Source: Schmidtea polychroa (taxonomy: Eukaryota). Taken from it: 64,000 bases of DNA. The position numbers and the translations under genes were made by a program. Position 1 is the stretch's first letter. The number at the start of each line of letters is the position of its first letter. The notes under the pieces are model-generated. The model searched no databases. It saw only the letters and a program-made list of their open reading frames with translations, and was not told the origin of the DNA. Below, in pieces: positions 30,351-57,081 of the stretch. The stretch lies in NCBI GenBank assembly GCA_044892525.1, contig CM097887.1:93846397-93910396 (forward strand). The letters run 5' to 3'.

Positions 30351-30434
30351 ACCTATGAAATGCTCGGGGTTAACAGTAAATTTAATGTTTTTGGTAGTTG
30401 TATATATATCAAATTCTTATTTGTGCGGACCAAT
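30351..30434 (-). promoter_or_regulatory. LTR promoter module: CCAAT box, TATA-like run, then splice donor AG/GTAAG (copies at 56662-56745 and solo LTR 25324-25458)
   Basis: GCGGACCAATCAGA-TTGAGTACCGC conserved between diverged LTR families; TATATAA in the solo LTR; donor ~50 nt downstream of the TATA in both. Confidence 0.65.
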
Positions 30435-30996
30435 CAGAGTTGAGTACCGCTTATTTCTATTAATTTAATATAATTTTCTTGTTTTTAGGTTGTTTTCTCC
30501 TTATTTTCTTTATTTTTAATATGTTTTTCTATTTATTTCCTTAATTTCCTTATTATTTCTTGAATTCCTCTTTATTTATTTGTCAACTTGTTCTATTTTA
30601 ATCTTTTCTTAATTTTATTTTTTGTTTTAATTCTTATGTCTTACTTATTATTTTCCTTATATCTTATTCTATTTTATTTCTGATTTTATTTGTTTTATTA
30701 TTATTTTTCTTAATGTTCTACTTCCCTACTTTCCTATTTTTCAACGATTAAATTTTCGACTCAGCCCAACAAATCACTCGGGGACCCATCAAAATTGCGT
30801 CCCGCAATTGCATAATTAACTTAATTCATTCATTCAAAAAAAATATAACACGAACACGGAAAATTATACAACAATGATAAAAATTTTATTGTAAGATCAA
30901 GGTCAAAGCAAGACCAAGCAAGTATCACTTAAGGTGATAGTTTGTACATACAATAAAAGTTTCCACATATAACAACACAAATGTTTGAATTAGAGT

Positions 30997-31638
30997 TTAT
31001 GAACTGTTAACCATTGATGCTTCTGCTGGCGGCTGTTGGTTGGTTTGGGTATTGATGTTGAGATAGGTCTGACTATTAGATTTCGGCTGGATTGGTTGAT
31101 TACTCGGGGTTCGAGGTCGGTTAAGATTTGTCAGGGGCACTTCTTGAGGATTTTGGTTCGAGGTTACTCTTATTGATGTCGAGACTCTACATCTATTTCG
31201 AACTTCGTAAATTTTCATGAATATTGGTAGACATAGGAGGAGGGTTTCTGCGATCACCACATATATGAGATAATGGGTGTCATTGATTTCGGGAGGTATT
31301 TTTGGCTTTTCTACCAGATTTCCAAAATTCTCTTGTTGCATTTGTTGTTCCAACTGGTCGAATTGTTGAATTTGTTCGAGGATTTGTTTGTTTATCATTT
31401 TACAAATGGGATTCTTTTTACACATTGTTTGGATGTTGTTGATGTGTGATCGGGTTGATTGAATGGTTTGGATGATATGGGTTTTTACGGTCATCGGGTA
31501 TGTGCATTGACTGGATTCTTGTTTAGGTTCTTGATTTTGATTTCGGTAATCTCGTACGATTTTCGGTTGGGCGTCTATTTGTTTGCTCTCCATCAGAATC
31601 ATCAATACCATCATTGTTATCATCATCTCGCCTCGCAT
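30997..31638 (-). CDS. Accessory type I membrane protein (signal peptide, helical ectodomain, TM, tail)
   Basis: MMITMMVLMILM signal, TM YLIYVVIAETLLLCLPIFM; likely start MRGEM after an acceptor. Confidence 0.7.
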   Translation of the reverse strand: MRGEMMITMMVLMILMESKQIDAQPKIVRDYRNQNQEPKQESSQCTYPMTVKTHIIQTIQSTRSHINNIQTMCKKNPICKMINKQILEQIQQFDQLEQQMQQENFGNLVEKPKIPPEINDTHYLIYVVIAETLLLCLPIFMKIYEVRNRCRVSTSIRVTSNQNPQEVPLTNLNRPRTPSNQPIQPKSNSQTYLNINTQTNQQPPAEASMVNSS

Positions 31639-31693
31639 GATACTATTATACATTCATTATGTTTATTTACAATTGGTTTTAATGACCCTTAAT

Positions 31694-32392
31694 TTAATGG
31701 TTCTGATTTGGATTATTTTCGCCGATTCTCATCAAGGTGGACTCTGCTTTAATTACCCTGTGTCTTAACTCGGGCAGCATTTCCAATTGTCGGTCTTTTT
31801 CACGGGCTTCTCTCTTTAGATGTCTAATTTCTTTTTCCAAGCGTCTAATTTCTTCCCTTTTCTTTTCAAGGTTTCTTTTTAGCTCGATTTGTAGGAGATC
31901 TTGTTCGTTTTCTTGCAGGTAATTTTGTTGTTGATGTTTTCTTTCTATTTCTCTATATTTGCGGACCCACTTCCTCATTTCTTTACTTTCCCGTTGGTTT
32001 TCTTCTAGTTGTCGTTTTAATTTATTTATAGCTGTTTGGCGCTCCTTCGCCTCAGTTTTCCAGTAGTCTTGGATTACCTCCTTTGCTTTGAAGCTTGCCC
32101 TTTCTTTCCATAGTTCTTCCGCTATCTTTTCCCAGTTTTTCCCTCGCTTCCTTTGTTCGTGTAGCCATTCATTTTCCTCTTCCGTTTCTCTTTTTATTTC
32201 CCCCAACGCTTCGCACTCTTTCTTTAACACCTTTATCATTTTCCGGTCCTCCAGGTATTTGTTTATTAATCTCCCGTTTTCGTATTTCTCTTCCCGTAAC
32301 TCGGCCTTTAGCGTTTGGGTTTCTGTTGTTTCTGCCTCAATCTCTCCCTCTTCTACGTCGCTCATAATTTCTATCATTTCCTCGATTTTCAT
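31694..32392 (-). CDS. Accessory coiled-coil protein (likely start MKIEEM)
   Basis: Long E/K/R heptad-rich ORF with element-like codon usage; acceptor 2 nt before the ATG. Confidence 0.7.
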   Translation of the reverse strand: MKIEEMIEIMSDVEEGEIEAETTETQTLKAELREEKYENGRLINKYLEDRKMIKVLKKECEALGEIKRETEEENEWLHEQRKRGKNWEKIAEELWKERASFKAKEVIQDYWKTEAKERQTAINKLKRQLEENQRESKEMRKWVRKYREIERKHQQQNYLQENEQDLLQIELKRNLEKKREEIRRLEKEIRHLKREAREKDRQLEMLPELRHRVIKAESTLMRIGENNPNQNH

Positions 32393-32560
32393 ATCTATAA
32401 TATGTACAGTTAATGGTGCGCTATAGTGCGACTTATACGTATACATTGATATAAAATTTAATAGTTTGGGTTACAGTCCCTTGAATACTTTTACAATACT
32501 TTAATTTTTTTGTTTGGGATATACGTCCCGGTTTTTAGTTTTTCATCTTTTCATCCACCC

Positions 32561-33616
32561 TCATACGAAGGTTTCCTCCTGGCCTACATAACCTTCATCA
32601 CTATCGACCGCGGAATGTAACTGTATCGCAATAGGGTCGTATGGTAGGTAATATTGGGGAATTTGAGCTCTCAATTCACTAACTTCGTCTCTTAGAGCTC
32701 GAGTGATATTCAATTCCTCGTCGAGCAGATAGGTGAGATACCTTGTCTCTTCATCTTTTGCCTCTATCTGTTTGTCTAGGGCTTTGATTTTCTCGTCGCC
32801 CTTCCATTTTTCAATTTCTATTTCTAAGTTTTTAATATTTTCGGTGTACATTTTCCTTTCGTTTTCTAATTTTCTGTTTTTTCCCGCTAGGACCATGTTT
32901 CTTTGTTCCAGCGATCCTTGTAATCCATTAAGGTCTCTTTTCATCTCTTCTACCTGATTTACTAATTCCACAACCCGTCCCGCTTGTTGGGTTATCATCT
33001 CTTCCATTGCGGCATTCTCGTGCTCTCTTATGTCGCACTTCATTGCCAAATGTCGCTCAAACTCCATAGCCTTTGTTTGCCAGGTTTGGCTTCGGGCGGC
33101 GACCTTTCTCAACCTTTTCAATTCTTCCTTTATTATTAAATTCTCCTCCCATTTACCTTGTTCGCTTTCGTATCCGAGTCTCATGGGCAATTCTTTCATC
33201 TCTTTTTTCATTTCTCTGTTTTGTCTTTTCCATTTTCTCGCTTCTGCCACTAAGTGCATCATTTTCCTGTCTTCTATTTGCTTTTCCGCTTCGCGCTTGG
33301 TGTTCTCATCGGTAAGTCTCTTTCTCGCTTCCTGCACTAGCTGCTTTAAGTAGTGGCTGTGTGCTTCTTGGCGGGTATTTTCCAGTGACGCCCATTTTGA
33401 TGCTCTTTTGCATGCTTCTGCTTCCGCTCTTAAGTTGTGTATTAACCATTGGTATTGACCATTCTCATCTTCTCTAGTTTCTTCGATGTGATTTCGGGTG
33501 AGATTAGTTAGTTGGAACATTACTTTGTTCCATTTTTTGTTATGTTCTCGGGGAATTTGTGTCTTGTTGACCTTGGTTGGGTCTATCGCAGTTTCGGTTA
33601 TTTTCTCTTGTGTCAT
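32561..33616 (-). CDS. Accessory coiled-coil protein, 351 aa
   Basis: Uninterrupted heptad-rich ORF; acceptor 2 nt before the ATG. Confidence 0.72.
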   Translation of the reverse strand: MTQEKITETAIDPTKVNKTQIPREHNKKWNKVMFQLTNLTRNHIEETREDENGQYQWLIHNLRAEAEACKRASKWASLENTRQEAHSHYLKQLVQEARKRLTDENTKREAEKQIEDRKMMHLVAEARKWKRQNREMKKEMKELPMRLGYESEQGKWEENLIIKEELKRLRKVAARSQTWQTKAMEFERHLAMKCDIREHENAAMEEMITQQAGRVVELVNQVEEMKRDLNGLQGSLEQRNMVLAGKNRKLENERKMYTENIKNLEIEIEKWKGDEKIKALDKQIEAKDEETRYLTYLLDEELNITRALRDEVSELRAQIPQYYLPYDPIAIQLHSAVDSDEGYVGQEETFV

Positions 33617-33809
33617 CTCTAAATCATAGACATCGATTAATCTTTTTATTATGAAAAAGGAATTTATTCATTATTTACTGTTTCTTGGGGAATTTTCGCA
33701 TCATTTTTGGGTTTTCGTATTTAGGGTTTTCATACTATTATTATATAATATTTTATTGGTTATATACACCGATATATACAGATTATTATATACAACATTA
33801 TTCGATTGG

Positions 33810-35198
33810 TTACTCCGTTCTACCCTTCTCCTCTTTCCTCACGGTCATCTTGATATATATGGTATCATTTCTCGCCATATCTTCTACTCTTTGTTGTGAG
33901 ATGAACGTAGGTGCTCCTGTTGCTGATCCTTCTTCGTTGAGGGGCCTCTGGTAAGCTATTTGATTCCCCGTTGTTTTGAAGCTTTGCTCATGTATACTTT
34001 GGTTGCTCATCAGAGTAATATCGATTTTTGCCTGGAACGGCCATTCTAATATTTCGTCGTATTCTCCTTTACATAACAGAAAGAAAATCGAAAAGTGCGT
34101 ATCCAATCCGGTTCCGTCCCCGTTGGGATATATCTTCATTTTCATTTTGTACCCATTTTTCCAAGAATGGAATGTAGGACTTGTTATTCTTGTCTCTTCT
34201 CCGGTTTTTGCTTTTCGTATTCTTTCTTTTACTCCCGTTATTTTCCATATGTAGGGTGCTGTTGGGGTTATCTCATTTAGATTTATTTCCCGTATTTTCT
34301 GATGTAGCTCCTTGGCCTGATTATTACTAATTTCTGTTCGGTTTATTTGCATCTTTATGTTTGTTCGGGCTTCTTCGAACGCTTCCCTTTCTTCTAGTAG
34401 TTCTTTGACTAACACTTTCAACGATGTTATCTCTATCTCCATTTGTTTTACTTTCTCTTCGCTTTCTTGTAACGCAGTCGACCACATTTCTGCGTGAGTT
34501 GAAGCATTTTCTACTAAATGATGTGGTAACTCACCTCGGTGTAGTAGTTTCTGACAACCCCATCTACCTAGTACACATGTCATTCTTTTCTTTTCGCATT
34601 CCCTTAGATGCTGTGCCACCTTCATTATTTCCCCTTGGTTACATCCGTTTGGGCATTCCCCACTGAACTCCGCACATACTCTCTCCTCTTGGACATTGTG
34701 ATGTTTGAGGGTGAGATTTATCCTCGTATCTATTTCTCCACAGTGTTCACATCTTTCGAATCTCTCTTCACACTGCCTTTGATGCTCTTTTTCTTCGCTT
34801 GCTCGAATGGTTTTATGGCACCTTTCACACTGGCCAATTCTGTACATACATTCTCCCATATGTTGTACTACCTTCCATATTACTCCTTTCCATTCGCATG
34901 GGGCATTTTTGCATCCCAGGTTGGTGTTTAACATGTCTTTCACTGCGGCTTTATCCTCGTTAGTGTCTTCTAAACTCGATATTAGTGTCTCTTTACACAC
35001 CGGGCACCTCTGTGGTCTATTCTTTATTGCTTCACTGATACATTCTTTACATACTCTGCATCCACATTGCGTTTGGTGAGGTTCCTTTAACAACTTTTCA
35101 CATATTCCGCACATAACATGTTTGTGTATTCTGATCGTTGTAGATTTTCGGACTTGCTCGACAATCTCTCTGAACTCTTCTCTTTGTCGTTTATCCAT
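33810..35198 (-). CDS. TRAF-family protein (RING, TRAF zinc fingers, coiled coil, MATH), intronless
   Basis: CGICEKLLKEPHQTQCGCRVCKEC...CPVC; CKNAPCEWKG; CPNGC; MATH YIWKI...GYKM...YPNGDGTG...HFSIFF...GEYDEILEWPF. Confidence 0.93.
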   Translation of the reverse strand: MDKRQREEFREIVEQVRKSTTIRIHKHVMCGICEKLLKEPHQTQCGCRVCKECISEAIKNRPQRCPVCKETLISSLEDTNEDKAAVKDMLNTNLGCKNAPCEWKGVIWKVVQHMGECMYRIGQCERCHKTIRASEEKEHQRQCEERFERCEHCGEIDTRINLTLKHHNVQEERVCAEFSGECPNGCNQGEIMKVAQHLRECEKKRMTCVLGRWGCQKLLHRGELPHHLVENASTHAEMWSTALQESEEKVKQMEIEITSLKVLVKELLEEREAFEEARTNIKMQINRTEISNNQAKELHQKIREINLNEITPTAPYIWKITGVKERIRKAKTGEETRITSPTFHSWKNGYKMKMKIYPNGDGTGLDTHFSIFFLLCKGEYDEILEWPFQAKIDITLMSNQSIHEQSFKTTGNQIAYQRPLNEEGSATGAPTFISQQRVEDMARNDTIYIKMTVRKEEKGRTE

Positions 35199-35283
35199 TC
35201 TATAATTATATGTACAAATAGTTCTTATCGATACAGGTTCGATATTTTATTTACAATTATTTACATTTTAAGCTAGGTTTGGT

Positions 35284-35643
35284 TTAGGGTTCGGAAGAGT
35301 CGGCTTCGTGTCCGCTCTCCTCTCTATTCATTAGCCATTCCGACCAGTCTTCTATTTCTGTCTGTTCTGCTTCCTCCCTCATTCGGTCTATTTCAATTTC
35401 CTGCCGACGGCTATATTGGGTTATCCTCTCTATCTCTCTTTGCATTTGTTCTATTTTTAACCTCTGGTCTTCAATTATCTTCAAATAACTAAATCCTCTG
35501 TTCATACTCTCGATCAGGTTTCTGTGCATCGTCAGTCCTTGTTCTTGCAAATTGGACACTAATTGTGCTAATACGGCACATTGTTGCTTCCATAATTCTT
35601 CAGTTACTGTATTGTGGTTTATTTCGTTATTTCCTTGATCCAT
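35284..35643 (-). CDS. Small accessory coiled-coil protein (likely start MDQGNN)
   Basis: Heptad-rich with an acidic end; acceptor 2 nt before the ATG. Confidence 0.6.
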   Translation of the reverse strand: MDQGNNEINHNTVTEELWKQQCAVLAQLVSNLQEQGLTMHRNLIESMNRGFSYLKIIEDQRLKIEQMQREIERITQYSRRQEIEIDRMREEAEQTEIEDWSEWLMNREESGHEADSSEP

Positions 35644-35803
35644 TCCTAATTTATATACACTTTTCAACTCTTATGTAAATTTAATTTTATTTTATGATTC
35701 CCGTTATCGTATAATATTGATACCGCGCTTATATAAAGATATAGTACTGTTATATACATAAGATATACTTACTTTTTACAATTATATACAGTCATATTCC
35801 TTT

Positions 35804-37270
35804 CTATATACGTGAGTTTGGAGGGCGCTGAGCGTTCCAGGCCTCCACCCACTGTCCTTGTTTGATATCACTTGGTCGTTTCACTCGATGTTGGAAGTTT
35901 CTGATTCGGGTCATTTCTAGTTCTCCGCGATGTCGTTTATCCTTAATTATTTTTATTGTTCCCCCCGTTATGATTAGGAATGCCCCTGTTATTATTATCC
36001 CACTGATCCACATCATCTGCTTCACGCTTATACTCTCTGGTTTTTCCTTGTTTGTTAATGTTGATATCGCTTCTGTACTTTTCTCGTTTCCTCTTTTGCC
36101 ATTTCCTTTCATCATTTCCCGTATTCTTGCTATTTCCTCGTTCATACCCTCCTTTGCCATCTTTTGTATTTTTTCCATCTCTTCCTCCGAAACATAGTTG
36201 TCCTGAGCTTCCTCACCAGTTTTCTTGTGCTTTCCTCCTTCGTTCTTTTCGTCGTGGTTTTTTCTTTTCTTTCCTCTTTTCCCCGGGTATCGTCGGCATT
36301 CTCTTTTTGATTCATTTCTCCAGATACAAACCGTATATTCCTTCGGAGGCTGCTGCTGCGTCACATATTGATGGCATCTCTCACCCGGTCCTAATCTTGA
36401 AATACAGACTTTGTGCTCTTTTCTTGGTTGGAGCTGCGTTATTACTACTTCGCCACCTTTTCCTAGGTGTACCTCTTTTCCTTTGACGTTCGTTATTCTC
36501 TTCCCGTCTCGATTTCGGTATGCTTCTTGTATTCTTACTTCTGTTATTGGTTCTGTGGCCTCATTTATCAGTACTAGTTTCTGATACGCTCTAGACATGC
36601 ATCTTCCTAGTATGCACCTTTCCTTTAAGTCCCATTCTTCCTTTAAATCCCACTGCTGCTCTTGTGCTTGCTTTTTCTTTTCTTGCTTTAGTTCATCCTC
36701 TTTGCTATCTTGATTCTCCGCTTCTTTGGTTTCTTTTATCGTCCTCGTCCCTCCAGGAGCTGTTACTAACTCTATCATGGTAAGCATAATTATCATTAAT
36801 ATCATATTTGTCTCTATTTCTTTGTTAGTGAAAGGTAGGCATACCCTCTGTTTTCCATTATTCGGTTTTTCCTCCTCTTTGGTCTTAGTTCCCGGGCTGT
36901 TTCCCTCTCTTTTCGTATCCGAATCCTTGTTTTCCGGTTTACCCTCCTCCGGTTCTCTTTCCTCTTTATCCTCCTTTCGGCCTTTTCCGTTATTGTCATC
37001 GTGTTTATCTCCCCCGCTGTCGTTTAAAATGTCGTCCTCGACATTTATATCGTTCAATAATCTGCGATATGCTGTTAGCACTCTGTTTCTTGCTAATTTC
37101 GCTTCGAATTCAAACTCTTTTCTACCCGTTGCAGCATGTCTCTTTCTATTCCATTCTTTAACTAACTCTCTCAATTGCATACGACGATGTTTCCCAATTC
37201 GTTGTTGCTCGTTCTGATTTTGCGTGAATTTTAGGTCTTCTCTATTTAATACTATTAAAATAATTTTAGG
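35804..37270 (-). CDS. Membrane protein (ankyrin end, internal signal, FN3-like domain, TM); probable -1-frame continuation of the polyprotein
   Basis: Frame is open upstream of the ATG at 37180 and overlaps the polyprotein end; VITQLQPRKEHKVCI is FN3-like; two hydrophobic segments. Confidence 0.65.
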   Translation of the reverse strand, partial: PKIILIVLNREDLKFTQNQNEQQRIGKHRRMQLRELVKEWNRKRHAATGRKEFEFEAKLARNRVLTAYRRLLNDINVEDDILNDSGGDKHDDNNGKGRKEDKEEREPEEGKPENKDSDTKREGNSPGTKTKEEEKPNNGKQRVCLPFTNKEIETNMILMIIMLTMIELVTAPGGTRTIKETKEAENQDSKEDELKQEKKKQAQEQQWDLKEEWDLKERCILGRCMSRAYQKLVLINEATEPITEVRIQEAYRNRDGKRITNVKGKEVHLGKGGEVVITQLQPRKEHKVCISRLGPGERCHQYVTQQQPPKEYTVCIWRNESKRECRRYPGKRGKKRKNHDEKNEGGKHKKTGEEAQDNYVSEEEMEKIQKMAKEGMNEEIARIREMMKGNGKRGNEKSTEAISTLTNKEKPESISVKQMMWISGIIITGAFLIITGGTIKIIKDKRHRGELEMTRIRNFQHRVKRPSDIKQGQWVEAWNAQRPPNSRI

Positions 37271-38950
37271 CGTCCCCCCCTTAGTTGGGTATTCTTTACC
37301 ATCGCATTTTCTCCGTTTTCGTAGAATTCGTTTACATTTATCGCATATTTATTATTTTGTGGTACTCTCCAGGTTAATAATAATTTCATTGCTTCTAGAT
37401 TTTTCCGTACCGTATTCCATTGAAACTGAGATGTGTTTTTGCACATATTTTCAACTTCTTCTTTTGTCGCATTTTTGCAAATAAATCTGATCATTTCTAG
37501 GTTTGGCTGTATGGTTGCCCAGTCCAAGGTGGAATTTCCTTCATTGGACCTTTCGTCTAGTTTCGATCCTGATTGATGTAGGATGTGGAGTGTTTTTGGG
37601 TGTATTTTTGTTATAGCTGCATACATCATGGCGGTTTCGCCTTGTTCATTTTTCGTGTTGGTTTCCTCGCCCATATCTCCAAGGATTCTCACGATCGTTA
37701 TTGCTCTATTTTCTTTCGCTGCTAGTATTGCTTGTTGTAGGGGTGTTCGGGAATCCTTCGTTACCATCGTAAATGCTCGAGGCAAGAAGGTTTTGATTTT
37801 CCCGATATCTAAACCCGTGGTTTGATCTCTTGCGTATGTATGTACAGCTTTTATTATTTTTGACAATATTATTTCGTCTGACAACTCTAGCATTTCCTCA
37901 AAGAATACCTCTTTCGCTTTGCGTATTATTGCCTCCTGATCTATACTCATTGATTTGGTTTCGATGACGTTGTTTATGACCGTTTGGTTCGTTGTTGACT
38001 TTGATTCCCTGGATTTCTCATACCTTATTTTCGTTTTCTTTCCGTTTGGATTATTGATTCGTTCCTCTGCTGTAAGTATTTGGATAATATCCAGGTAATT
38101 CTCGCGGATGTTATTCATTGTGTCCATCATATATAACACACTTACCGTTTCCCAATATTTATTTCGTACTTGGTTAGTAAATTGGAATAGTGATTTTTCG
38201 AATGTGTCGATTCGCTTTTTTGTTAACTGTTCGTCTTTGTGATTTGTGAATTTTATCCCTCGTTCTAGTAATTGATTCGGGATTTCGAATAAATGATGTC
38301 CTTTCATAGCTTCTCTCATCAGCGTGTTCTCTCCTCTCGTGAACGCTTCGTTTACGTTGATCATATAATCGTTTCGAATTGGATTTCTCCATGTAATTAA
38401 TATTCCGGTAATTGTCGTCAGTTTTTCTTTGATCGCTGTTAGCAATCCATCATACATGTTTCCGACTTCCCGATTGTCCTCATATGATAGTAGTTCCATC
38501 AATGACGTGAACGCCTCGGTACTTCTCCCTCTGATAGCATGATGTAGAGCGTTTTTCCGCTCGTGGTCTTGTGTAGTTATTTTCGATCCGGTATCGAGTA
38601 ATGCGGTTATAATGTCTTTTGTTTTTCCTCTGTTTGCTGCTATCATTAATGGTGTGTAACCTTGGTTGTTTGTTTGTTCTGTTGATCGCTTGCAGTCGTG
38701 AAATGCTTCTATTGTTTCTAGTATTTGCTCGTTGTTACCTACTTTCATGAGTTTGTGTAATGGTGTGTCTCCGTAATGATCTGTTATTGTAAATAATATT
38801 GGCCATTGGCTTTTGACTACTCGCAATAATGGGTGTGTCCTTTCTCTATTTGCATAGTTCTCGATCATCGTCAATAATCCTCCTAATATTTCGAAATCTA
38901 ATCGATCTTTTGCCCATCCAGGTATTTTAATTTTTACCTCTTTTACAATC
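37255..38950 (-). other. Ankyrin-repeat region C-terminal to integrase
   Basis: GDTPLH, GYTPLMIAANRG, KNALHHA, SRTPLQQA, GETAMMYAA, GNSTLDWA. Confidence 0.88.
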
Positions 38951-41900
38951 TTTTCCGCTTCTGATGGTTGGATACCCAATCGTCCGGTGATCGGTTCTGC
39001 GAGTTGTTGCATCATGTTCATTCGGTAGGTTTGCGAACGTGTGGTTAATGTACGGCCTTCTGGTTGACTAGTGGCTGTTTTTGGAATTGATTTGCATCGT
39101 GCCACGTTTACGTATATTGGTCTGGTAAAGGGGTTATTTACCAATTTCACTCTTACATTAGTTTCGCCTACGAATAAGATCTCATATGGTCCTTTTCCGT
39201 TGCGTTGCAACTTTTTTGTGGTTCCTGGAATTAATTCCGGGGTTTCTATCATTACCCAATCACCTGTTTGGAACGTATGTTGCTTCACGTTTTTCTTTCG
39301 ATCGTGTAAATCTTTATAACTTTCCTGGTAGAACTTGATATTTAATCCCGCAGTTTCCCAAATTTCTTGCATTCTTTCCTTGAATTTCGTAACATAATCA
39401 TCGATCTCCATATACTGCGATATCGGTGGTTGGTATTCCAGGTCCATTGGCATATTACATTCTCTTCCGTACATTAATTTGAATGGGCTCATTTTCGTTG
39501 ATGCGTGAATCGACATTCTGTACGCCATAAGACATAGGTTTATATATTCATCCCAATCTCGTTGGTGACGGTCAACGTAGTTTGATAACATTTGTATAAG
39601 TGTTCCATTAAATCTTTCCGTCATCCCATTGGTTTGAGGGTGGTATGGAGATGTTCTTAGTTTTGCTATTTTGAAGTAATTTGTTACTTCGCTCATTATC
39701 TCACTCATAAAATTAGTTCCCTGATCGGTTAAGATTTGTTTTGGTGTTCCATATCGGCAACATATCTCTTCTACCAAAATTTTTGCGATTGTTTTAGCTT
39801 TTTGGTCTGGCATCGCGAATGCTTCTGGGAATTTCGTAAGAAAGTCTGTGATCACTAGAATGTAAACGTTTCCTTTATCTGACTCTGGTAGTGGACCAAC
39901 TACGTCCATGGATATCATTGTCATTGGTTCTATTGGTACTGGCATTGGTGTTAAAGGTGCTTTCCATTTCGATCCAGTATTCTTCCTGGTTGCACAAGTT
40001 AGACAATTTTTTACCCATTCAGTTACATCTTCAGTTAACGTAGGCCAAAAATATTTCTGTTTCATTCTTGCTAACGTCTTTTTCGATGACATATGTCCTC
40101 CCAATCTCCCATCGTGATATTGCGTTAGTAACTCTTTTCGTCGGTTTTCCGGTATACACATTAATCGTTTTTCCCCATCCATTATCAGCAACCAATCTTT
40201 CTCTATAATATATCGGTGTCGGTGTTTATCCATATGTTCTTTTAATTTTTGGTCTTTCGCATATACCTCTGTCTTTCCGGTTTTTACATAATCGATAATT
40301 TGTTTTAATTCCGCGTCCTCTTGTTGGTCCTTTCGTAATTGACAGAAATCCAAATCTTCCGCTACTATTAAGCATATGCGTTGCATTTCTGAATCCACCA
40401 AATCTGGGAAAATAAATCTTGACATACAATCGGCGTTGGCATTTGCTCTTCCCGCTTTGAATTTTATAAATGGGGAGTATTCTTGCAATTGCATGGCCCA
40501 TCGCATCAGTCTACTGGACGCTTCTTTATGTTGCCCTAACCACACTAATGGTTGATGATCCGTGGTTATGCATATCTCATGTCCCCATAGTAAATATCGG
40601 AAGTGTTTGATAGCTTGTATTATAGCCAATGCTTCTCGTTCTGTTACCGAATAGTTCTTTTCGTGCTTTTTGAATGTTCGACTGTAATACCCGATTACTC
40701 TCTCTTTTCCCTCATCGTCTAATTGTCCCAAAATCGCGCCTGCCGCGTACCCGCTTGCATCCGTTGCCAATAGAAATGGCTTCTTAAAATCTGGGTGTAC
40801 GAGGATAGGTGCTTCGATTAGCTTATCTCTCAGCGTTTCGAACGCCTGTTGTTGTTCTTTTTCCCAAATGAACGAAATATCCTTCTTTACTAATTCCTGG
40901 ATTGGTTTTGCAATTCCTGCATAATTTTTGATAAATTTGCGATAGTATCCGCATAATCCTAGAAATTCCTGAACTTGGGTGACCGTTTTCGGTGCGGGAC
41001 ATGTTTTTATTTTCTCAATGTTCCTTGGATCTGGCTCCTTTCCTTTAGCTGACACTATGTGTCCTAAAAACGTGACTTTTTCCTTTGCCCAATCGCATTT
41101 TGATGGTTTGAGTTTGAGTTTCCACTGTCTTAATCTAATAAATACGTTTCGGATATCTTCCAGATGTTGTTCAAATGTCGCTGAATAGATTAGTAAATCA
41201 TCAATATATACCATACATTGTTTGATTCCATGGGTGACAAAGTTCATACACCGTTGAAATGATGCTGGTGCGTTGGTCAGTCCAAATGGCATTTTCCTGA
41301 ATTGATATAGATCTCGTCCCAACGTGAAAGCTGTTTTCTCTTTGTCCTCATCTTTGACTTTAATCTGCCAGTATCCACTTTTTAGATCTAAAGAAGTAAA
41401 ATATGCTGCCCCTTGCAACATCAATAACATCTCATTGATGTCCGGCAATGGATAGGTATCTCTCTTGGTCACTACGTTTAACTTCCGATAATCGATACAG
41501 AATCGTTGGGTGCCATCTTTCTTTTTTACCATGACCACTGGGAATTGCCAGGGTGAGCAACTTGGTTCGATTACTTTTGCGTCCAGCATCTTTTGTACTT
41601 CTGCTTCGGCTATTTCTTTTTGCATTTCTGCTAGCTTGTATGGTCTTAATGCAATTGGAGTTTCATCTATGAGGGGTATTGCATGTAGGGTAACATCGCA
41701 TGTACCCAAGTCTAAGTCTGAGATGGCGAATATATCTTTATATTCTACCAACAATCGGTGTAATTTTTTCTTTTCATCATTCGTCAACAACATACTATCT
41801 ATTGTCCATAATTCATCATCTTTGATCATCTCGTTGGTCACTTTCGGTAATTCTATGTCCATCATTGGGGTCAATCTTCCCAATTTTTCGTTCTCATAAA

Positions 41901-44900
41901 TGATTTTGTCTTCTTCTTCGAAATTCGTGATGTTGAGCGGTATCACTCCTTCTTGGTTTATTGTTATTATTTCTCTTGCGAGTGGTAATTCTCGTCGCTT
42001 TTCGAATGACTTGCTTGGTTCAAAGATAACTTCTCCTTCCATACCCGTATCCACTTTTATCTGACAAATCATCTGCGATTTTGCTGGTACTATTATTTTT
42101 TCTGGACATCTGATGACTGCATTCACTTTGCATATTCTACCGGTTTTGTCTTTTAAACACATGGTTGTTAAGTCAATTACGACTTCTTTTAACAATTCTG
42201 GCATCAAATCCGTTCCGATTATGCATGGTACGCTAAGTTTTGGTATTACTGCCAAATACGTTTCAATTTCGTTGTCCTGGTATCTCAATGTAGTCCACCA
42301 TCTTCCGACCACGTCCACTGTTTCTTTACTACATGCTATGATGTGAATTGTTGTTGATTCGATATCCTTCCAGTGTTTACTGGGAATTTGATTAATCGCT
42401 ATCGCCGATACATTAGCTCCTGTGTCTATCATAGCATTGGTTTCTTGACCATTGATTTGGATCATGACTGTCACTGCTGGACCTCCAGGTAGACTCATTG
42501 CTGCGATTGTTCTTACGTCATCTGCTTGATCTACACTTTTGGTACGTCGTGTTGGCATATAATGCATACCGGGTTGACTCGGTAATTGCGGATACATATT
42601 TTGGGTCATGGTCAAAGCTGCTTGTGGTCCCACGATATCCGGTGGTATATAGCTTCCATTGGCGATCCAGGTGTTTGTCTTTTCCTTTTCCCAATATGGT
42701 GCCGTTTCCATTGGTTTTTCGTTTGGGTTTCTGTTTGGATAAAGACATTTATCGTTCCCGTTATCATCGTCGTCACTATCGCTGTTAGATGATTGGCTTC
42801 TAAATCGGTCCAAGAATTTTGGCTTATTCTTTTTCAATTGTCGTCTTGTTGCTTCATCGTACATTACTTTCCGGAATCGTCTGCCTACTTCTTCGTCGGT
42901 TCCTTTAATCTTTGTTAATATTTTAATCAATCGCTTTATCCGATGAATGTCTTTTGAGTGACCATGTAATACCATGGTTTTAGCTAAAAATGGTAAGAAG
43001 CCTACTATCATTTTCCAGTTAACTTTCTTTTCCCGCTTGTATATATCGAAACAAGCTAACATTTGTGTTAGTATTACTCTGACTATCTGAATTATGAGTA
43101 TGATCCCTAATATCCCGGCCATCATTTGTCCAAAAACTAAGAATCTTCCCCACATTGCTTTCATCATGTTTGACGTAGCTTGTTGAAAATGGTCTGGCGA
43201 TAATAGCAGCTCGTAATTCGGGCCTGATTGATAGTTTGTGCCCCCAGTTATTGTTACCATATTTGACAAAATGGATTCTCGTCTGGCTGGGAAGAGTACG
43301 TTAAGTCGTGCTGTTTCTAGATCTTCTGGGGAATACATACCACCGTTTGACACGTCTATAGGTTTGAAATCCAGCTCTGTGGCGAGTTCTATTAATCCAA
43401 ATTTCTTGGGTTCCTCGGATATGGTTTTTCCCGGTAACATCATCCATTTCCCATCGGGTCTTTCATACAAAGGTCCGTATGCATTAGAACAGTTAAAGAG
43501 ATTTGGGTAGAAACCCACTGGATTCATAATTCTAGTGACTGGTTGGACGAATCGATTTTGTCCTTTATAACGAATTTCTAATTCATTTGCACATCTCTTT
43601 TCGGGTAGTATGGATTTTTCTGGCATTCGTGCATACGTCTTGGTACACTGGTATGTGTACATCACTTCTCCTACCATTCTACCAAAGTGTCCATCTGGTA
43701 ATGGGAGTGATGGCATCGTGTTATCGGGGTGCGTTATCGCAATAGCTAGCTTTGTTTTCAATATTTCTTTATTCAATGAACAATCGTTTTGTATCAGATC
43801 GTAATATACTTTTTGCAAGGTCGTTTGTCCGCGATGAAATAGAAAATCCATTTTATTATTTGCATATAAGTACAGTTTTACGTCCTCCGTTGCTATCTTT
43901 CCCACTGCTCTATCGATTATTTGTCTCGACATATAGATACCTGCGTAATTGGTTTTATATACTATACTGTCACATTTGGTGGTTTCTTTTTCTTTGATAA
44001 ATCTCATACCTAGATCTGGATCGTCTGTGATTAATGCTGTTGGTGTCTTCTGCGTTGAAAGTCTCTTTTCTCTGGGAGATGGTGGCATTGGTTTTCCATT
44101 TCGCATTCTCACTCTGTCGTTTCCATCCTCGTCGTTCTCGTTCTCATATATTTCTCCTTTTACTTCATTGAACAAAGCACTTTTTAACAGTTGGAGTCGG
44201 CATTTTTGGGTATTAGCTTCATAGATTATAGTTGATACTCCTGTCCTGCATACGTTTTCTGTAGCTCTACACGCTGGGTTGGTCTTCATTTGGTAATTAT
44301 TTGCGTCAAATTGCGCTTCGTATTCTTTTAATTCGACCGTGTAAGACTCGATCACTACAACTCCCGATATTACCTCGCCTCGGATCGTATACGTACCTCC
44401 GTTACATGACCCATCTGATGATTTTACTTTTCCGGATACGTAAACACTTTCGGTTTTAATCATTCCAGTTTGTCCGTGAATTGTCACTCCGTTATGCATT
44501 TTTAGCGCTCCGGTTCTAAATAGCTCTTTACAATCCTCTCGTTGTATTGATACGATTTCTTTATCCAGACCGGGTAGTATAAGAGTCGAATACGAATATT
44601 GTCCACAGTAATATGCGAGTACCTTTTTTGATACTACGCATTCCCTTGCTTGCGTTCTGATGAAATCTGATTCTTGATATACATGGTAAGTAACTTTTGT
44701 TCTCACGATGTCCAATTTGTTGGGTGAGGCTTGTCTGCATTCTTCTATATCTCTCAATGAGTATTTATCTCTCATTATCATATTATCACAATCGTAGATG
44801 GTGAAACCTGTTGCTCCACTTGTGCACAACATCCATATCATCATAGTCATCATTAACGAATTTATTGATGCTTTTCTGCTTGCGGGATCTTTCATCGGTA

Positions 44901-49656: not shown

Positions 49657-50967
49657 GATTGGTGTTCTAGGTTCGTCTGTTTCTTTTAAATTGTCTAACG
49701 ATGTGACTAAACTTTGGGCTGATAATTCTTCGGTTGACGTTGCTAAACTATTAGTGATATCGGACAGACTTTCTCTACTTCGAGATCGACTAGGGGTATA
49801 TCCGAGATTTTCTTGGTCAAATATGGGTACTTGATTGGTTCTTCTGGATCCTTGTGATATTCCTCTTTGATGTTTAATGGATCGTCCTCTTTTGAGTTGT
49901 TGTAATTCGTCTCCTGAAAATAATACGTCTCCTGGCTTACTTGAAGATCTAAGATTGGGTTTATCCGTGATTCCTTTCTTACGCTTCTTGGTAATTAGCG
50001 GCTATTGAATTGGACGCGTTCGGTTCTGATTGTGTTTCCTTCGATAAATATTCTGTATGAATCTGCTACTGAGATCCTGAGGAGATTTACTAATCCTTGG
50101 CAGATGGCTGCTAATACTTCTTCCGTTCTGGAGTCTTCCGGTTGCTGTGTCTCTCGGTGCGGGTTCTGAATGGATTTATCCTTGGTTGATTGTCGATTTC
50201 TTCGAATTCCTTTTGTGCAGGTTCTGGATTGTCTTGGTTGGCTGGATTGGCTTGATATCTAAAATGAAAAAATGATCTCGTGTTGCATTTGCTTACACGA
50301 CTTCATCATTCTTTCTACAACATTCAAAAACAGACACCTTTTAGGTTTCTGTTTGTGCTTCCCCTATCTTTTGTGAAATCCTTTCTGCGGGTTATAATAT
50401 CCCATCAGCCCGTATTTTCCGTCGATTTTAAATTATCTATATGGGGTAGTAACAATTATCTATAAAGTCGTAATAATTATCTATTCGTTATCAATTATAG
50501 TAAAAATAGGTCGTTGTCGGTCTCTGCTTATTACCCCCCTTTCATTTTCCTAATCCTTTTGCGCTGTTGTCGCTATTTTACTTTTCATATTCACTATTAT
50601 TACGCTCGGTTCTACTCTGGAACCAATAAAATGCATTTTCCCGGTTTAACCAACAAAAAAAATATTCCGTAGAGTTTCTCTACTTCACTGGGATCCCTTT
50701 AATTAGTTAGTTACTTTCCTCTTTACTCATTATCATCGTTTCATCTATTCTTTATTTTCTATTATCTCTTTAATTCGTTTCCTTCTTCCCTTTCCTTTTT
50801 CATTATAATCCTATTTTCTTTTCCACGAGCTCGTTTATTTCCTCTCTAAACTCGAATTTTCAAAATTACATTCAATTTGTTCTAGCTAGCTTTAATATTC
50901 CATATCACTAGTAATTTAAATATTATCTCATTGTAGCTTAACTGCTATCTCTCGTTTTTCTAGGCCT

Positions 50968-51520
50968 TTACGACTGGCTGGCACTATTCAACAGCTCAAT
51001 CTTCTTCCTTCTGATCGGTTAGACTATTCAACAACTCGATCTTACGACTGGCTGGCATTATTCAACAGCTCAATCTTCCTCCTTCCTGATCGGTTGGACT
51101 TTTCACAACTCGACCTTACGACTGGCTGGCACTATTCAACAGCTCAATCTTCTTCCTTCTGATCGGTTGGACTTTTCACAACTCGACCTTACGACTGGCT
51201 GGCACTATTCAACAGCTCAGTCTTCCTCCTTCCTGATCGGTTGGACTTTTCACAACTCGACCTTACGACTGGCTGGCACTATTCAACAGCTCAATCTTCT
51301 TCCTTCTGATCGGTTGGACTATTCAACAACTCGATCTTACGACTGGCTGGCACTATTCAACAGCTCAATCTTCCTCCTTCCTGATCGGTTGGACTTTTCA
51401 CAACTCGACCTTACGACTGGCTGGCACTATTCAACAGCTCAATCTTCTTCCTTCTGATCGGTTGGACTTTTCACAACTCGACCTTACGACTGGCTGGCAC
51501 TATTCAACAGCTCAATCTTC
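50968..51520. repeat. Tandem array, 8 copies of a 73-74 bp unit in the element leader
   Basis: Unit starts at 50968, 51042, 51116, 51189, 51263, 51337, 51411, 51484; internal ctattcaaca sub-repeat. Confidence 0.95.
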
Positions 51521-52095
51521 AATATTCCTCGCTCTGCATGCTTCTATTTCTCTTTTCTTCTTTTACTCTAGTTTACCATTTTCTCTGTCTACTTTTAATT
51601 TGTCGACTTAATCTTTACCGCTTGGGAGTGTTTCCCCTTTCCCCCCTTGCTCAAAACGCACGACGATCGCGATGATCCATTTCTACCTTGGCATGGTGAT
51701 CAGTCATGTCGCAAAAACTTCTCATCATATGCGATGGTACCCCGCCCTACGCTTCTTACTTGGGTTGATCAGTTATCCCCTCCCAACGGGTTCTTGCAAT
51801 AAGACGTACCGCCCGAAGGTGGCTCGGTTTGTACCCCTGCAGTCTATATTGGGACTAATTCCACGTTATTCAACCCTCTCTTCATTTGATTCCGAAGAAA
51901 AAGAATAAAACAAAACAAACACGCAAATATTCATTCGTCATGCAAATTTTATTAGTCCTAATCATCAAAACTTTTTAAAGACGAATTTATTTATCATAAA
52001 CATAAAGATTGAATCATTAACAGTACGTGTTACTTCAACAATTTCATGCATTCTTGTTCAAACATCGTATACTTGCTGTTACATCGCCGGCCGTT

Positions 52096-52581
52096 TCATT
52101 CGCCATAATAGACCATATGGGTCTCTTTTATTTCATATTTGCACATCGTGCATCTTTTTAGGTCTTTTACACACTCTTCACAGTGACTGAGGTGTCCACA
52201 CGGTAAGAATAATACGCGAATAGGACGGAGTTTGCAGGCTATACAAGTTCGTAATTGGTTAACTTTTTCCTGTATTTTTTGTTCGATTGCATCTGGTATT
52301 GTATTTAGTGAGTCTTTTAGACGCTGATAATCTAGATTTAATGTTGGGTGGTTCAATCTCTCTTGATACCACTGATATACGGTTTCGGGGTTTATTTTTC
52401 CATCTGGGCGACTTAGGCCTGTGGCTAATATCATATGATTAGGTACGACTGGTGTTTGTCCGATTGCTTGTAGTAATATCGCGTTGATTTTTTCTCTTTT
52501 ATGCGTCAGTGTTGTTAGGGAGTCGTTTTCTATATCGATAAACTTGAGCAGTTGTTGCATTTGGTTCGCGAATTCTGTCAT
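52096..52581 (-). CDS. Accessory ORF with IAP-type C-terminal RING, no BIR visible
   Basis: CIACKLRPIRVLFLPCGHLSHCEEC...CTMCKYEI; acceptor ttttccaacag 2 nt before the ATG. Confidence 0.82.
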   Translation of the reverse strand: MTEFANQMQQLLKFIDIENDSLTTLTHKREKINAILLQAIGQTPVVPNHMILATGLSRPDGKINPETVYQWYQERLNHPTLNLDYQRLKDSLNTIPDAIEQKIQEKVNQLRTCIACKLRPIRVLFLPCGHLSHCEECVKDLKRCTMCKYEIKETHMVYYGE

Positions 52582-52894
52582 AGCTGTTGGAAAAGTAATG
52601 TTTTAATAATATGTAGTAAATTAATAGTTAATTCGTTAATTGGTTTCTTTAACCATTGTTAATTATTTAATTTGACTACTTTATCTCCTTTATTTATATC
52701 CTTAATTTTTCTATTATCTACATTTTGATTTTCTCTACTTAGTTCCTAATATAATTTAATAATCAATAGTTAATTGGCATTCGTCAAGCAATGGTCGGTC
52801 GAAAACAGAAAATCGATGTGATAAATCCCTTTAATTTTTTATGAAAATCCCGGTGAATTTCGCATTCGTTAATAGAAATTTCGATCGATTGTAG

Positions 52895-52912
52895 ATCCCG
52901 GCTGAGCCCCCA
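52895..52912 (-). promoter_or_regulatory. Primer binding site, tRNA-Pro type
   Basis: Sense TGGGGGCTCAGCCGGGAT vs the MLV tRNA-Pro PBS TGGGGGCTCGTCCGGGAT (16/18); 7 nt from the 5' LTR. Confidence 0.85.
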
Positions 52913-52919
52913 ATAATCA

Positions 52920-55900
52920 TGTTGGGGTTACACCTCGGCTGACTACCCTACCAAATTGACGGGTCTAAGGGTTGATTGTCCATCTCGAATAAAAGGTGCC
53001 ATCGATTTGTCAACCTGGGGTGAAACCCCACATAACTTTCTTCCAACATAGTGCCCGTGAATCACTTCACGTTGGTACTGCACTATGCAGGCGAGACGCC
53101 AGCAAGCAGGTGAGCTTCTGCCTTAAAACTACTCCTTGCTGAGGCCTCGACTTCCCACTTACGACTGCCGTTAGAAGGGCTTACGTCCATTTCCTTACAC
53201 AACCACTTATCAGGATTCGCTGAATGCAAATTGGGAATTTCTCACTAGATCTTGCGGGTTCTCTACTCAACCCACTTAATTAAAATCTAATTATTCATGA
53301 ACGAAAACGTGTAAGACAACAAGATTTATTAATTTCAACGTTATGACACAAGGATTCAGCTGTACACTTTACTAATGTTTGTCGAAAGAAGAGAAAACAT
53401 CATAATCAACATAGATCGGATCCTTGTTCTTCATCCTGACCGCCACTGGGGTTCTATTGTTTCTCCCATTCAGCGTCGGCGAATAATTCGTCGAGGTTAA
53501 AAAACTCGGAAGCGTTCTCTTCCCACGTTACGCCAGCGGCTGATATGATTCGTGCTGAGGGTCCCGTTGTTAGGTCGATGGACACGTGAGAGTTACCACC
53601 GTTGGTTGAATCCTCTATTGATGGGATGTTTGGCTTTGTAGTGGCGCGTTCGCGCTGTCTCTTCTTGCGCTCTGCACGAGAGAGTTGTTTGCGCTTGGGT
53701 TTGCTTGAAGATGCCACTTGCAGAGGGGTGACTGATACAGATGGACTAGCAGTGGGGGGCTTACTGGTACCCGTGACGACAACATCTGGTCGCTTGGGGG
53801 ACAATTCGTTTTCGACGCAGTCTTGGCACGGTCTCTTGAACGGTGGAGATGGATTCGAGGAAAGGTTGTGATGAGGCGGAAAGATGTCATCGGCCTCTCG
53901 GATGGGAATCTGCACTATTTTTCGGGTTGTAGCCGCCTGCACGTAAACCTTATGCAGTGCCTCGGATTGTTCTCTGATTAGACTTCTTTGGGCACGGCTC
54001 TCAGATATTAGCGCGTCCCGGCAATGCTCGCTACGATCGAGCTTCTTTTGGATCTCCTTCATCCGAGCGGGACTAAACCATGTCCCTTCCAGCTCGTCGA
54101 TTTTTCGTTTATATCGACCGATCTGGGCTTGAAGATCTTTAATCACTGCATTTTTATCTGAGCAGGAGAAGCAGGGACGTAGAGCTGATTTGTTGTTTGG
54201 TAACATAATGGATGGCTAAAGAAGAAAACTATGGTGACTATATCTAAAAATTTCGGATCAGATATACGGTTTATCCGCTATTGGATACTTAGTGCTGGAA
54301 GAAAACAAGACGAGTCGACGAAACAGGATCCCTCCCTTCACCCTTGATTACTAATATTTTACGTATCCTTTACAGAAAATTATTCCCCAACGCCCTGATT
54401 GCTTCCCTGACGAATGCAAATTATTTGTAAAAATTTTAATTTTCGTCTATCGCGTTCGAGTTGGATTTCTATCTATCGCACATAAAGGCAATTTACGGAT
54501 TTATTCATGCCGGAGCGAATAAACCTATTTCATTACAAATACACTATACTACACTTCGTTTAAATTTCGCTGATTATTTGTTGTTATTCTAATGCAAAAT
54601 AAGGTTTTTGGACCAGATGCAACTAGTAAAAACTTGCACCCTTACCTCAAGTAGCGGAATAAGTAATAACTCGTAATTTCGTATAAACTATACGTCACTA
54701 TTTTATGATTACCCCTTATCCATACCATACGGTGATATCGTCGTAGAAATATAGCATCGTAAAAATATTGTAATTACATAATAATTTGTTATCGGATTTA
54801 GTTTTCTATTACAATACGTCATTTACAGGGAATATGAGAAATTTAACTACAATATTACTAGCTATTTTATAACCCAAAAATTCCTGTAGATGCTTTAGTT
54901 AATTTAAATTTGGCTCAAAGGCTACTACTATTATTTGTAACATCTAATTAGAATTACGATAAACCTCTACAACACTTAGGTGAAACTTCCTATGGTTTAG
55001 TTATAAAGTTTGGTTTGAATTTTCGGTTATTAATTAAAATACCCCTTCAACAATTTCGATTTTTATTTAGAATATTTAATTTAAGCAAAATTATCTTTAA
55101 TGAGTGCACTTTAGAGAGTCTCTTATCTTAGTAGTCGGTTACTGGTTATTTTGGCTTATCTTTTTAGTGGTACGAATGACCTTCATCAGTAGTGAAATTT
55201 AAGAGTCAGTCATCTGGAAGTCACATCTCATGTCAGCATTATCTAATATGACCACTGATTACTACTCACACACTAAGAATCCTAGAGAGGGTGACACATG
55301 GCGGCATTCCCTGCGGTGAGAGGCACTCGGAATGATTCTGCTGTTTCTCATGCATATTTCTGACCGGATGACGCTACTCATAGTTATGTTAGCAGTATGT
55401 CTGTATGTATGGGTGCCTGTTCGATGGAAATTTTATCGGTAACTATCAACCGTACTGAGCGAACTGCAAATGTTACATCGCGTGTCGATTCCCATCTGAG
55501 CTTATGATGTTGGATTTATTTACTACGACTCGTAATTTCCTCAATATTGGATGTTTTTGAACGATGGGAGATCTCTACGAACCAGCCAACTAGACTCTAT
55601 GAAGCATATTTCAGTAGTGGATATTTCGACGCAACAGCATGAAAATTATTCAATGGGTATTACCAGATTTTGTTAATATATGTGATTGAATACAGTATTA
55701 TTGTGGTTTTATGTTTTACTTTTCCTTTATTGTAAATTCCTCATCATATGCTAAGATTTGGATGTCGCATCTGAAAGAGATGACCTAAATTAGATTTACT
55801 TTTTCAAAAATCTACCGAATGCAATTTCAACTTCTCGATATGTTAGAAAAACCAGCGATGGATGTTTAATGGTATTTTCCCCCACATGGTAAGTTCGGAT

Positions 55901-57081
55901 TTATAGACAGAAGTGGCATGAATGTCTTATAAGACGACTCTGGACAATACAGAGTTAATATGAGAACTCCCTCAGTCGCTGTGAAGCACATATCCTATTT
56001 TCGAAAATTTCATAAGGTTTCCTTTCGGTCTATATTTCGGTACTCCGACAGATTTTAAGTCCTTCAGCAATTGGACCCGTGAAGAAGCCTTCACATTTCG
56101 GCCCAATCTAGCTGCGTGATTGAAATACTCCATGTCCACCGGCTGAGCTCCCGAAGGCACCTCGCACCATGACATGGAGTATCTCAACGCCACGTTTCTC
56201 GTTAATATTAGAAATCATAAAACTATCACTTCAAAATAAATATCCATAAAAGTTATGTAAGAGTTCACCTGTTACCAATAAATACTTTTAAACATTTAAA
56301 TTATTTACTTTATCAAAATCGTTATTCAGGATCAAATGAAAAGAGAGTCTGGTTAAATTTAAAAGTTTAATTGCTCATTAAATATACATATTTACTATTA
56401 ACTTCGAAAAACAATATCATAAATAAAAATCCCTTACTATGGAATTAGGCTGAATCGGAAAATTAACGTTAGTCGTTCCAAATTAGTCTGATGATGGTTC
56501 GTCGAATGTCGATTGCTGTGACTGATTTCGAATTGCTGTGAAGTTTTTCGAATTAACTGTTGCTCTACTTGTATTGCTGATCCTTGAAATAAGTCTCCGT
56601 GAGTTGTAGATGTCTATGAAATGCTCGGGGTTAACAGTAAAAACAGTAAACATTTTTTCTTACCTATGAAATGCTCGGGGTTAACAGTAAATTTAATGTT
56701 TTTGGTAGTTGTATATATATCAAATTCTTATTTGTGCGGACCAATCAGAGTTGAGTACCGCTTATTTCTATTAATTTAATATAATTTTCTTGTTTTTAGG
56801 TTGTTTTCTCCTTATTTTCTTTATTTTTAATATGTTTTTCTATTTATTTCCTTAATTTCCTTATTATTTCTTGAATTCCTCTTTATTTATTTGTCAACTT
56901 GTTCTATTTTAATCTTTTCTTAATTTTATTTTTTGTTTTAATTCTTATGTCTTACTTATTATTTTCCTTATATCTTATTCTATTTTATTTCTGATTTTAT
57001 TTGTTTTATTATTATTTTTCTTAATGTTCTACTTCCCTACTTTCCTATTTTTCAACGATTAAATTTTCGACTCAGCCCAAC

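Follow-up and report, generated by a model that had tools for sequence, protein, structure and literature searches.

How can a retroelement of about 30 kb, whose polyprotein is accompanied by accessory open reading frames (ORFs) inside its long terminal repeat (LTR), before gag and after pol, express all of them? The question is raised by a 64,000-nt stretch of Schmidtea polychroa DNA (GenBank assembly GCA_044892525.1, contig CM097887.1, positions 93,846,397 to 93,910,396; hereafter the window), the minus strand of which carries a giant Gypsy element (Table 1) that matches the planarian Burro/GYPSM1 kind, as judged by the features described in PMC6431247 (this and the other papers cited below were compared in excerpt). 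A sequence-only reading of the window had proposed expression in the manner of the adenovirus late unit, with one promoter, one donor, a 25-nt common leader, an acceptor before nearly every ORF, and poly(A) signals behind most of them. Our favored interpretation, which we hold to be probable, is that the LTR promoter makes one RNA, that the acceptor of each ORF receives a common AUG-free leader, ~200 nt long and made of two exons, and that a poly(A) site behind each ORF is used; the joint to the LTR ORF has been seen once, as a DNA fossil in a related copy (L102), and the joints to the other ORFs are predicted.

The idea of a single LTR promoter is well supported: a search for a CCAAT box followed at 61-90 nt by AG/GTAAG gave 504 genomic matches (control, 0) in many diverged LTR types, and in the window the donor (D1, GT at 56663-62) indeed lies right after the promoter, 72 nt past the CCAAT box. 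The 25-nt block preceding this donor recurs 45-54 nt downstream, ending in YAG, in each LTR type; exon 1 and its own intron tail are identical at 0.96 of positions over 25 nt, as against 0.52 across 22 types, and identity is at background (0.37 vs 0.37) beyond position -26. The copied block begins 28-31 nt after the TATA box in 35 of 42 variants, is 23-33 nt long (mode, 25), and has a G at its junction in 13 of 42 variants, which are related, compared with 0.15 expected. The block supports the 25-nt first exon of the sequence-only reading and suggests that a single long RNA would start at 56688, ~30 nt after the TATA box, in which case the G at the junction would be a copied cap. All 42 variants scored also have an acceptor 45-54 nt from D1, located in the window at 56615-14, 50 nt downstream of the donor, and we strongly infer that D1 splices over these 50 nt to the start of exon 2 at 56613.

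A second conserved donor (D2, 56437-36), overlooked by the sequence-only reading as was the D1 acceptor, ends exon 2 and would be the long-range donor to alternative acceptors. By a fixed rule, the D2 motif (GTAAG/A) follows exon 2 in 37 of 47 LTR variants, the ten misses comprising 3 at a locus edge, 2 that run into unrelated sequence, 1 deletion, and 4 that the rule leaves unresolved. Exon 2 ranges from 113 to 222 nt across LTR variants and contains 2 ATGs where 69.9 are expected (5,159 nt in 32 variants, chosen for having D2), both in a triplicated copy; an equal length after D2 holds 139 ATGs in these 32 variants, and the T content climbs from 0.26 to 0.46. Because exon 2 is purged of ATG up to D2, it resembles a 5′ untranslated region with D2 as its end. 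The single donor and the 25-nt common leader must accordingly be replaced by two donors and a leader of two exons. That the 25-nt exon alone is joined from D1 directly to each distal acceptor, as originally envisaged, now seems very improbable: D1 is a perfect, conserved AG/GTAAG and exon skipping is possible in principle, but D1 has its nearby acceptor in every variant scored, exon 2 is purged of AUG, L102 uses D2, and no D1-to-distal joint was found among genomic copies of the window element's subfamily.

A DNA record of D2 use came to light when the exon-2 end was sought, as a pattern, beside the start of the LTR ORF; of three hits one is real (L102), and the other two, L101 and L103, are not splice joints. 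L102, which belongs to a sister family, is a solo LTR of 1,875 nt that has the promoter, both leader exons, and an open LTR ORF of 247 amino acids (aa); its flanks (~9 kb upstream and ~8 kb downstream) are without internal element sequence. In 8 of 8 intact siblings (84-94% identical), a GT..YAG segment of 1.7-1.9 kb lies exactly at the L102 joint, which shows no microhomology and not a single base in common at either side. We take L102 to be a DNA fossil of the D2-to-LTR-ORF splice, a single instance in a sister family, which would have arisen by reverse transcription of a D2-spliced RNA; this splice retains the primer site. Searches for further joints in the window element's subfamily gave 0 genomic hits both for the D2 exon end followed by a non-G and, with exon 1, for an adjoining ATG or a following C/T. 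When the end of exon 2 was sought beside a start codon, 44 hits resulted, mostly reversed LTR ends; none of the 30 with loci matches an ORF start, and the remaining 14 were judged from the printed match alone. Large deletions in L084 and L076 were rejected as splice products, their ends not being GT..AG. No joint from either donor copy was seen in contigs of X1, X4, X5, and X6 over 26700-46600 (among the 15 of 35 joints and 24 of 924 loose ends listed) or of X1, X2, X3, and X6 over 27700-35800 (15 of 17 joints and 24 of 329 loose ends listed), but these contigs were uninformative; joints beginning at ORF starts (35199 in X3 and 33616 in X4) were discounted, as unknown letters lie between and the donor is not reached.

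All the AGs listed in the sequence-only reading, and its AG/GTAAG donor, lie on the minus strand where it had placed them. The distance from AG to ATG is 9 nt for the LTR ORF (in both LTRs and, as had been claimed, in the solo LTR, with AG at 23025-24), 2 nt for the RING ORF, 2 nt for the 119-aa ORF, 1 nt for the TRAF ORF, and 2 nt for the 351-aa ORF; counted from the second ATG, it is 2 nt for the 250-aa ORF and 4 nt for the 218-aa ORF. The pattern of an acceptor before nearly every likely ATG is confirmed: among seven first ATGs, five are preceded by a YAG at 0-9 nt (shuffle P=0.006; the background is 178 of 661 sense ATGs of the element, or 27%), whereas the 250- and 218-aa ORFs need their second ATG, which in the 250-aa ORF is the conserved one. 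The AG assigned to a 127-aa ORF is correct; this ORF is 119 aa long (128 from stop to stop). Comparison of copies indicates that i) the LTR ORF has a YAG 0-10 nt upstream in 15/15, in upstream sequence that is otherwise unalike; ii) the RING ORF has a YAG 2 nt before its ATG in 13/13; iii) the TRAF ORF has a YAG 1-2 nt before its ATG in 16/16; iv) the 351-aa ORF has TTTAG 2-3 nt before its ATG in 16/16; and v) the 232-aa ORF has TATAG 2 nt before the second ATG in 17/17.

Might these AGs mainly supply a purine at -3, with the 3′ ORFs expressed from small promoters of their own or by reinitiation on a polycistronic RNA? An AG 1-2 nt before the ATG indeed puts a purine at -3, the spacers contain TATATAA-like words, and internal promoters are known in foamy viruses (PMC12789967). 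The Y, A, and G are nevertheless conserved while the bases between YAG and ATG vary, and a start 30 nt past the TATA-like word nearest each ATG would land inside the ORF; moreover, ATGs are not depleted in the spacers that precede the acceptors (27 vs 29.7 expected; the TRAF-351 spacer has 7), and scanning through these spacers is therefore disfavored, a background rate of ATG being what is expected if the spacers are removed by splicing. We regard own promoters or reinitiation as quite improbable.

The strong acceptor that had been noted in the gag leader (50259-60) is present and is kept in 16/16 copies, followed in 15/16 by an AUG-free stretch; in the window, the gag leader has 0 ATGs vs 7.9 expected. 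From the strong and conserved acceptors of RING and gag, we infer that D2 is joined to both. The Gag frame is already under purifying selection in the 104 codons that precede its first ATG (49657-49968) (pN/pS, the ratio of nonsynonymous to synonymous change, is 0.2, p=8e-12, for L074 vs L084; the pooled comparison gives 0.031 vs 0.188), and this conserved stretch without ATG starts at an ACG (49968) that has an A at -3 and a G at +4. Gag thus likely begins at ACG 49968, which would be a non-AUG start in strong context. A donor-like GTAAGA (49981-49982, minus strand), found in 15/16 copies 276 nt after the gag acceptor and 14 nt upstream of the ACG, could end a third leader exon. The gag acceptor also opens an ATG-less frame (49995-50258, minus strand). 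It runs for 87 codons in the window copy, against 106 in most copies, and includes a hydrophobic stretch; its pN/pS of ~0.5 is not significant. L023, L025, and L029 (3/16) lack the same 52 nt of the gag leader, a GT..AG deletion that is ambiguous as a splice product, and the GT is absent in L074.

Behind the ORFs, the AATAAA or ATTAAA said to follow most of them is present in 8/8 cases, each weak by itself (shuffle chance, 0.24-0.86 each; product, ~0.005). The motif TGTAnATA, which we take to fit both cleavage factor Im (CFIm) and Pumilio sites, is found 11 times across the five 3′ spacers, where 0.22 are expected. The hexamers and the TGTA enrichment suggest alternative polyadenylation with one 3′ end per ORF, in which each mRNA would finish at the poly(A) signal that follows its ORF. 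Less firmly, we suggest that D2, or a third exon ending at 49982, is joined to the five 3′ ORFs, where stop-to-acceptor gaps measure 51-191 nt, and poly(A) hexamer and acceptor lie side by side. Short gaps, an acceptor by the ATG, and a poly(A) signal near the next acceptor are likewise features of flatworm spliced-leader (SL) operons (PMC12582326, PMC8629364), and the system could be mixed: the leader would be cis-spliced to the LTR ORF, RING, and gag, while the five packed 3′ ORFs would form an operon resolved by cleavage and SL trans-splicing. Planarians do have SL trans-splicing, flatworm operons have, by definition, gaps of <=300 nt (PMC12582326), and the 3′ acceptors are unlike the 5′ ones in composition. 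Every reported flatworm SL, however, ends in ATG (PMC12582326), and that ATG would fall in the wrong frame before the five 3′ ORFs of the window copy because their AG-to-ATG gaps are 2, 1, 2, 2, and 4 nt; furthermore, where a cis donor lies upstream the SL is said to be out-competed (PMC4558846), and here there is a strong one, whose use has been shown once, in L102. On balance we think a mixed system unlikely, though a serious rival at the five 3′ ORFs.

We wish to stress that several observations weigh against the LTR-leader interpretation that we favor. Two of the 3′ acceptors are weak: that of the 119-aa ORF is YAG in 5/16 copies and AAG in 11/16; that of the membrane ORF shifts between alleles, with a YAG directly before the first ATG in 4/16, the later TAG of the sequence-only reading in 11/16, and neither in 1/16 (L081, where it is lost). 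The pyrimidine fraction is 0.59-0.76 at the 5′ acceptors and 0.29-0.53 at five 3′ acceptors, and the conservation counts are not independent because the internal regions of the copies are close kin. To reach the last ORF, splicing would have to pass over 25 kb and as many as seven poly(A) signals. The spliced-copy evidence is one event, in a sister family, at the nearest acceptor only, and L102 may have inherited its lack of intron 1, since 5/8 siblings are also without it. No genomic copy was found in which D1 or D2 is joined to RING or a 3′ ORF, although this is weak counter-evidence because such RNAs lack the primer site. Lastly, intron 1 is exactly absent from 12 of 63 LTRs of the window element's subfamily, in both LTRs of 6 elements, and these losses alone prove nothing, because deletion between the repeats yields the same product and could equally be their source. 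A tree of the intron-1-less copies (11 rows, representing 6 elements) has 4 changes, and one origin was obtained in 0 of 200 bootstrap trees; its well-supported branches are compatible with a single origin. An LTR start lacking intron 1 also forms a tandem array with a period of ~2.8 kb (L113-L125; G000:C2, ~173.68-173.73 Mb).

How the element would keep intron 1 if its RNA is spliced may be answered by the copied block. An RNA that retains intron 2 would keep U5 and the primer site and would serve as template in reverse transcription. We suppose that the spliced 5′ end of this RNA anneals to the exon-1 copy with which intron 1 of the 3′ LTR ends, so that intron 1 would be rebuilt in each cycle and its tail overwritten with exon 1 during strand transfer. 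The complete program, in which a two- or three-exon AUG-free leader is cis-spliced over as much as 25 kb to eight acceptors, each product with its own 3′ end, while the packaged genome is 5′-spliced and regains its intron from the exon-1 copy, and Gag starts at ACG, we propose tentatively and with somewhat more doubt than belief.

The LTR also has a candidate poly(A) site. Another A[AT]TAAA lies ~66 nt and a conserved U-rich box ~98 nt after D2, at positions similar to those in many other LTR families; this candidate poly(A) site would make R ~340 nt and U5 ~3.4 kb. In the foamy virus LTR the major donor similarly lies upstream of the poly(A) signal (PMC3694450), as D2 lies upstream of the candidate signal in both LTRs here. 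The end of exon 2 (56444-56470) is complementary to the 5′ end of the LTR (57060-57083, minus strand), and the two co-vary (permutation p=0.001 in 22 related variants); their pairing could circularize the genomic RNA. A foamy virus-type control, in which D2 is masked in the 3′ LTR context by pairing with U3, is unsupported by folding prediction, in which D2 is less accessible with U3 in only 9 of 22 variants (mean unpaired, 0.41 vs 0.36). Inside intron 2 is a self-complementary block ~87% conserved between two diverged LTRs (window 56061-56222 and 24700-24860); it has no match in Rfam, whose sole hit was a chance one on the TAA tract.

The two LTRs of the window element are identical over 4,164 nt, the sole mismatch of the 4,172-nt match falling past the CA end, and LTR pairs ~26.3 kb apart are numerous among the 40 genomic matches listed. 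By Pfam, the 4,133-aa ORF encodes Gag, zinc knuckles, a Monjiviricetes-type fusion protein, protease, reverse transcriptase (RT), RNase H, integrase, and ankyrin repeats, so that the Gypsy order protease-RT-RNase H-integrase is contained in one polyprotein with Gag; the Env-like mononegavirus fusion protein (PF24664, aa 1868-2207, E 5e-70) lies in frame between Gag and protease. The accessory ORFs comprise the LTR ORF inside the LTR, RING before gag, and five after pol (119 aa, 462-aa TRAF, 351 aa, 232 or 250 aa, and 218 aa). A 458-codon frame was rejected as a separate gene, being continuous with the polyprotein in 13 of 17 other loci (4 were uninformative). Among cargo domains, Pfam detected MATH/TRAF, RING, and ankyrin; BIR, BCL2, and dUTPase had no match at E 0.01 in the window proteins. 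Protein searches returned no planarian relative, no relative for the 351-aa ORF and the LTR ORF, and one rotifer TRAF at 26%; 0 of 10 proteins were exactly present in the collection searched. A primer-binding-site-like sequence lies 7 nt past the LTR end (52896-52912, minus strand), and ~seven 74-nt tandem repeats, the number of which differs among elements, separate the RING ORF from the gag acceptor (window 50968-51520).

Table 1. Positions of the element, its predicted leader and its ORFs in the window, in order of transcription
Feature	Position	Strand	Remarks
Burro-type giant Gypsy element	26609..57083	-	30,475 nt; TG..CA ends; insertion within (TAA)n tract
5′ LTR	52920..57083	-	4,164 nt
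LTR promoter	56712..56748	-	CCAAT box (reverse) and TATA box
Exon 1 (predicted)	56664..56688	-	25 nt; start inferred from edge of block copied at intron end
Intron 1 (predicted)	56614..56663	-	50 nt, GTAAG..TAG; donor D1, the donor of the sequence-only reading; last 25-28 nt repeat exon 1
Exon 2 (predicted)	56438..56613	-	176 nt; AUG-free; 3′ part complementary to LTR 5′ end
Candidate LTR poly(A) site	56325..56371	-	ATTAAA 66 nt past D2 and conserved U-rich box
Intron 2 (predicted)	54216..56437	-	Donor D2 (GTAAGG, 56437) to LTR-ORF acceptor (54217-16); homologous intron precisely absent in L102
LTR ORF	53454..54206	-	250 aa; no known family; within LTR
RING ORF and acceptor	52096..52585	-	161 aa
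gag acceptor and AUG-free stretch	49657..50260	-	602 nt AUG-free; includes donor-like GTAAGA (49982) and predicted ACG start (49968)
Polyprotein ORF	37255..49656	-	4,133 aa; Gag-Env-protease-RT-RNase H-integrase-ankyrin; from ORF list and Pfam
458-codon frame	35804..37180	-	Polyprotein tail, out of frame in window copy
119-aa ORF and weak acceptor	35284..35647	-	
TRAF-like ORF	33810..35201	-	462 aa; RING-MATH
351-aa ORF	32561..33620	-	
232-aa ORF	31694..32396	-	From second ATG (250 aa from first)
Membrane-type ORF	30997..31653	-	218 aa
3′ LTR	26609..30772	-	Copies of both donors (GT 30352-51, 30126-25) and of LTR-ORF acceptor (27906-05)
Diverged solo LTR	21735..25789	-	Same promoter; three 51-nt exon 1/intron units (25272-25424); D2 at 25052; acceptor 23025-24

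Spliced subgenomic RNAs of LTR elements, the adenovirus late unit, and donor-controlled LTR polyadenylation are already known. Complex retroviruses, among them human immunodeficiency virus 1 (HIV-1) with its map of acceptors, share the poly(A) site of the 3′ LTR, whereas each ORF here has a poly(A) signal of its own. As in splicing of the HIV-1 type, one donor would serve many acceptors (PMC12789967). The adenovirus major late transcription unit resembles the present element in having one promoter and a common, noncoding, multi-exon leader (PMC11304566) and, to the extent that our predictions hold, alternative 3′ exons and several 3′ ends; it differs in belonging to a DNA virus and in its poly(A) families L1-L5, whereas here a retroelement has one ORF per poly(A) signal and two leader exons (a third being possible) inside its LTR, and unspliced RNA must persist as its genome. 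Splicing also provides a separate mRNA for an element gene in the case of ATHILA env and copia GAG (PMC7197481), but only one subgenomic RNA is made there, compared with up to eight predicted here. Described Burro/GYPSM1 elements (PMC6431247) share the length of ~30 kb, the env-like fusion protein that separates Gag from protease in the same frame, the accessory ORFs, and the RING, MATH/TRAF, and ankyrin cargo; they differ in that TRAF is a separate downstream ORF here and that the BIR, BCL2, and dUTPase of described members have no Pfam hit. The Burro section of that paper is silent on how accessory ORFs are expressed. In the excerpts of the open-access literature compared, which did not include the original Burro paper (Grohme 2018), we found no description of Burro splicing or of spliced env or accessory genes in flatworm gypsy elements, no match for LTR introns or strong-stop DNA of this sort, and no non-AUG Gag in retrotransposons; nor did the excerpts on retrovirus LTRs describe a 50-nt intron whose tail copies exon 1.

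Burro elements thus have many cargo genes and, in the excerpts compared, no described route for expressing them, a question that the map of leader and acceptors makes directly testable; transposons rise upon PIWI knockdown (PMC8532177). If our interpretation is right, splicing and poly(A) control of the grade seen in complex viruses arose in a Gypsy lineage, and because the host also trans-splices, the same sites would allow a comparison of cis with trans splicing. The exon-1 copy would be a DNA record of both the start site and the splice, and would offer an LTR a way to retain an intron through reverse transcription.

Elsewhere in the window, the plus strand carries a 273-aa ORF and a 165-aa ORF with an adenovirus-type protease (PF00770) at 17135-18398, which we take to be probably a Polinton/Maverick fragment; host CBP/p300-like exons with KIX and bromodomain (Pfam) at 14351-15437; and a 108-aa RING ORF at 26076-26402, opposite in strand to the solo LTR and the element between which it lies. 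At 1699-2583, a 170-nt inverted repeat flanks a 225-aa ORF that by eye resembles a reverse transcriptase fragment.

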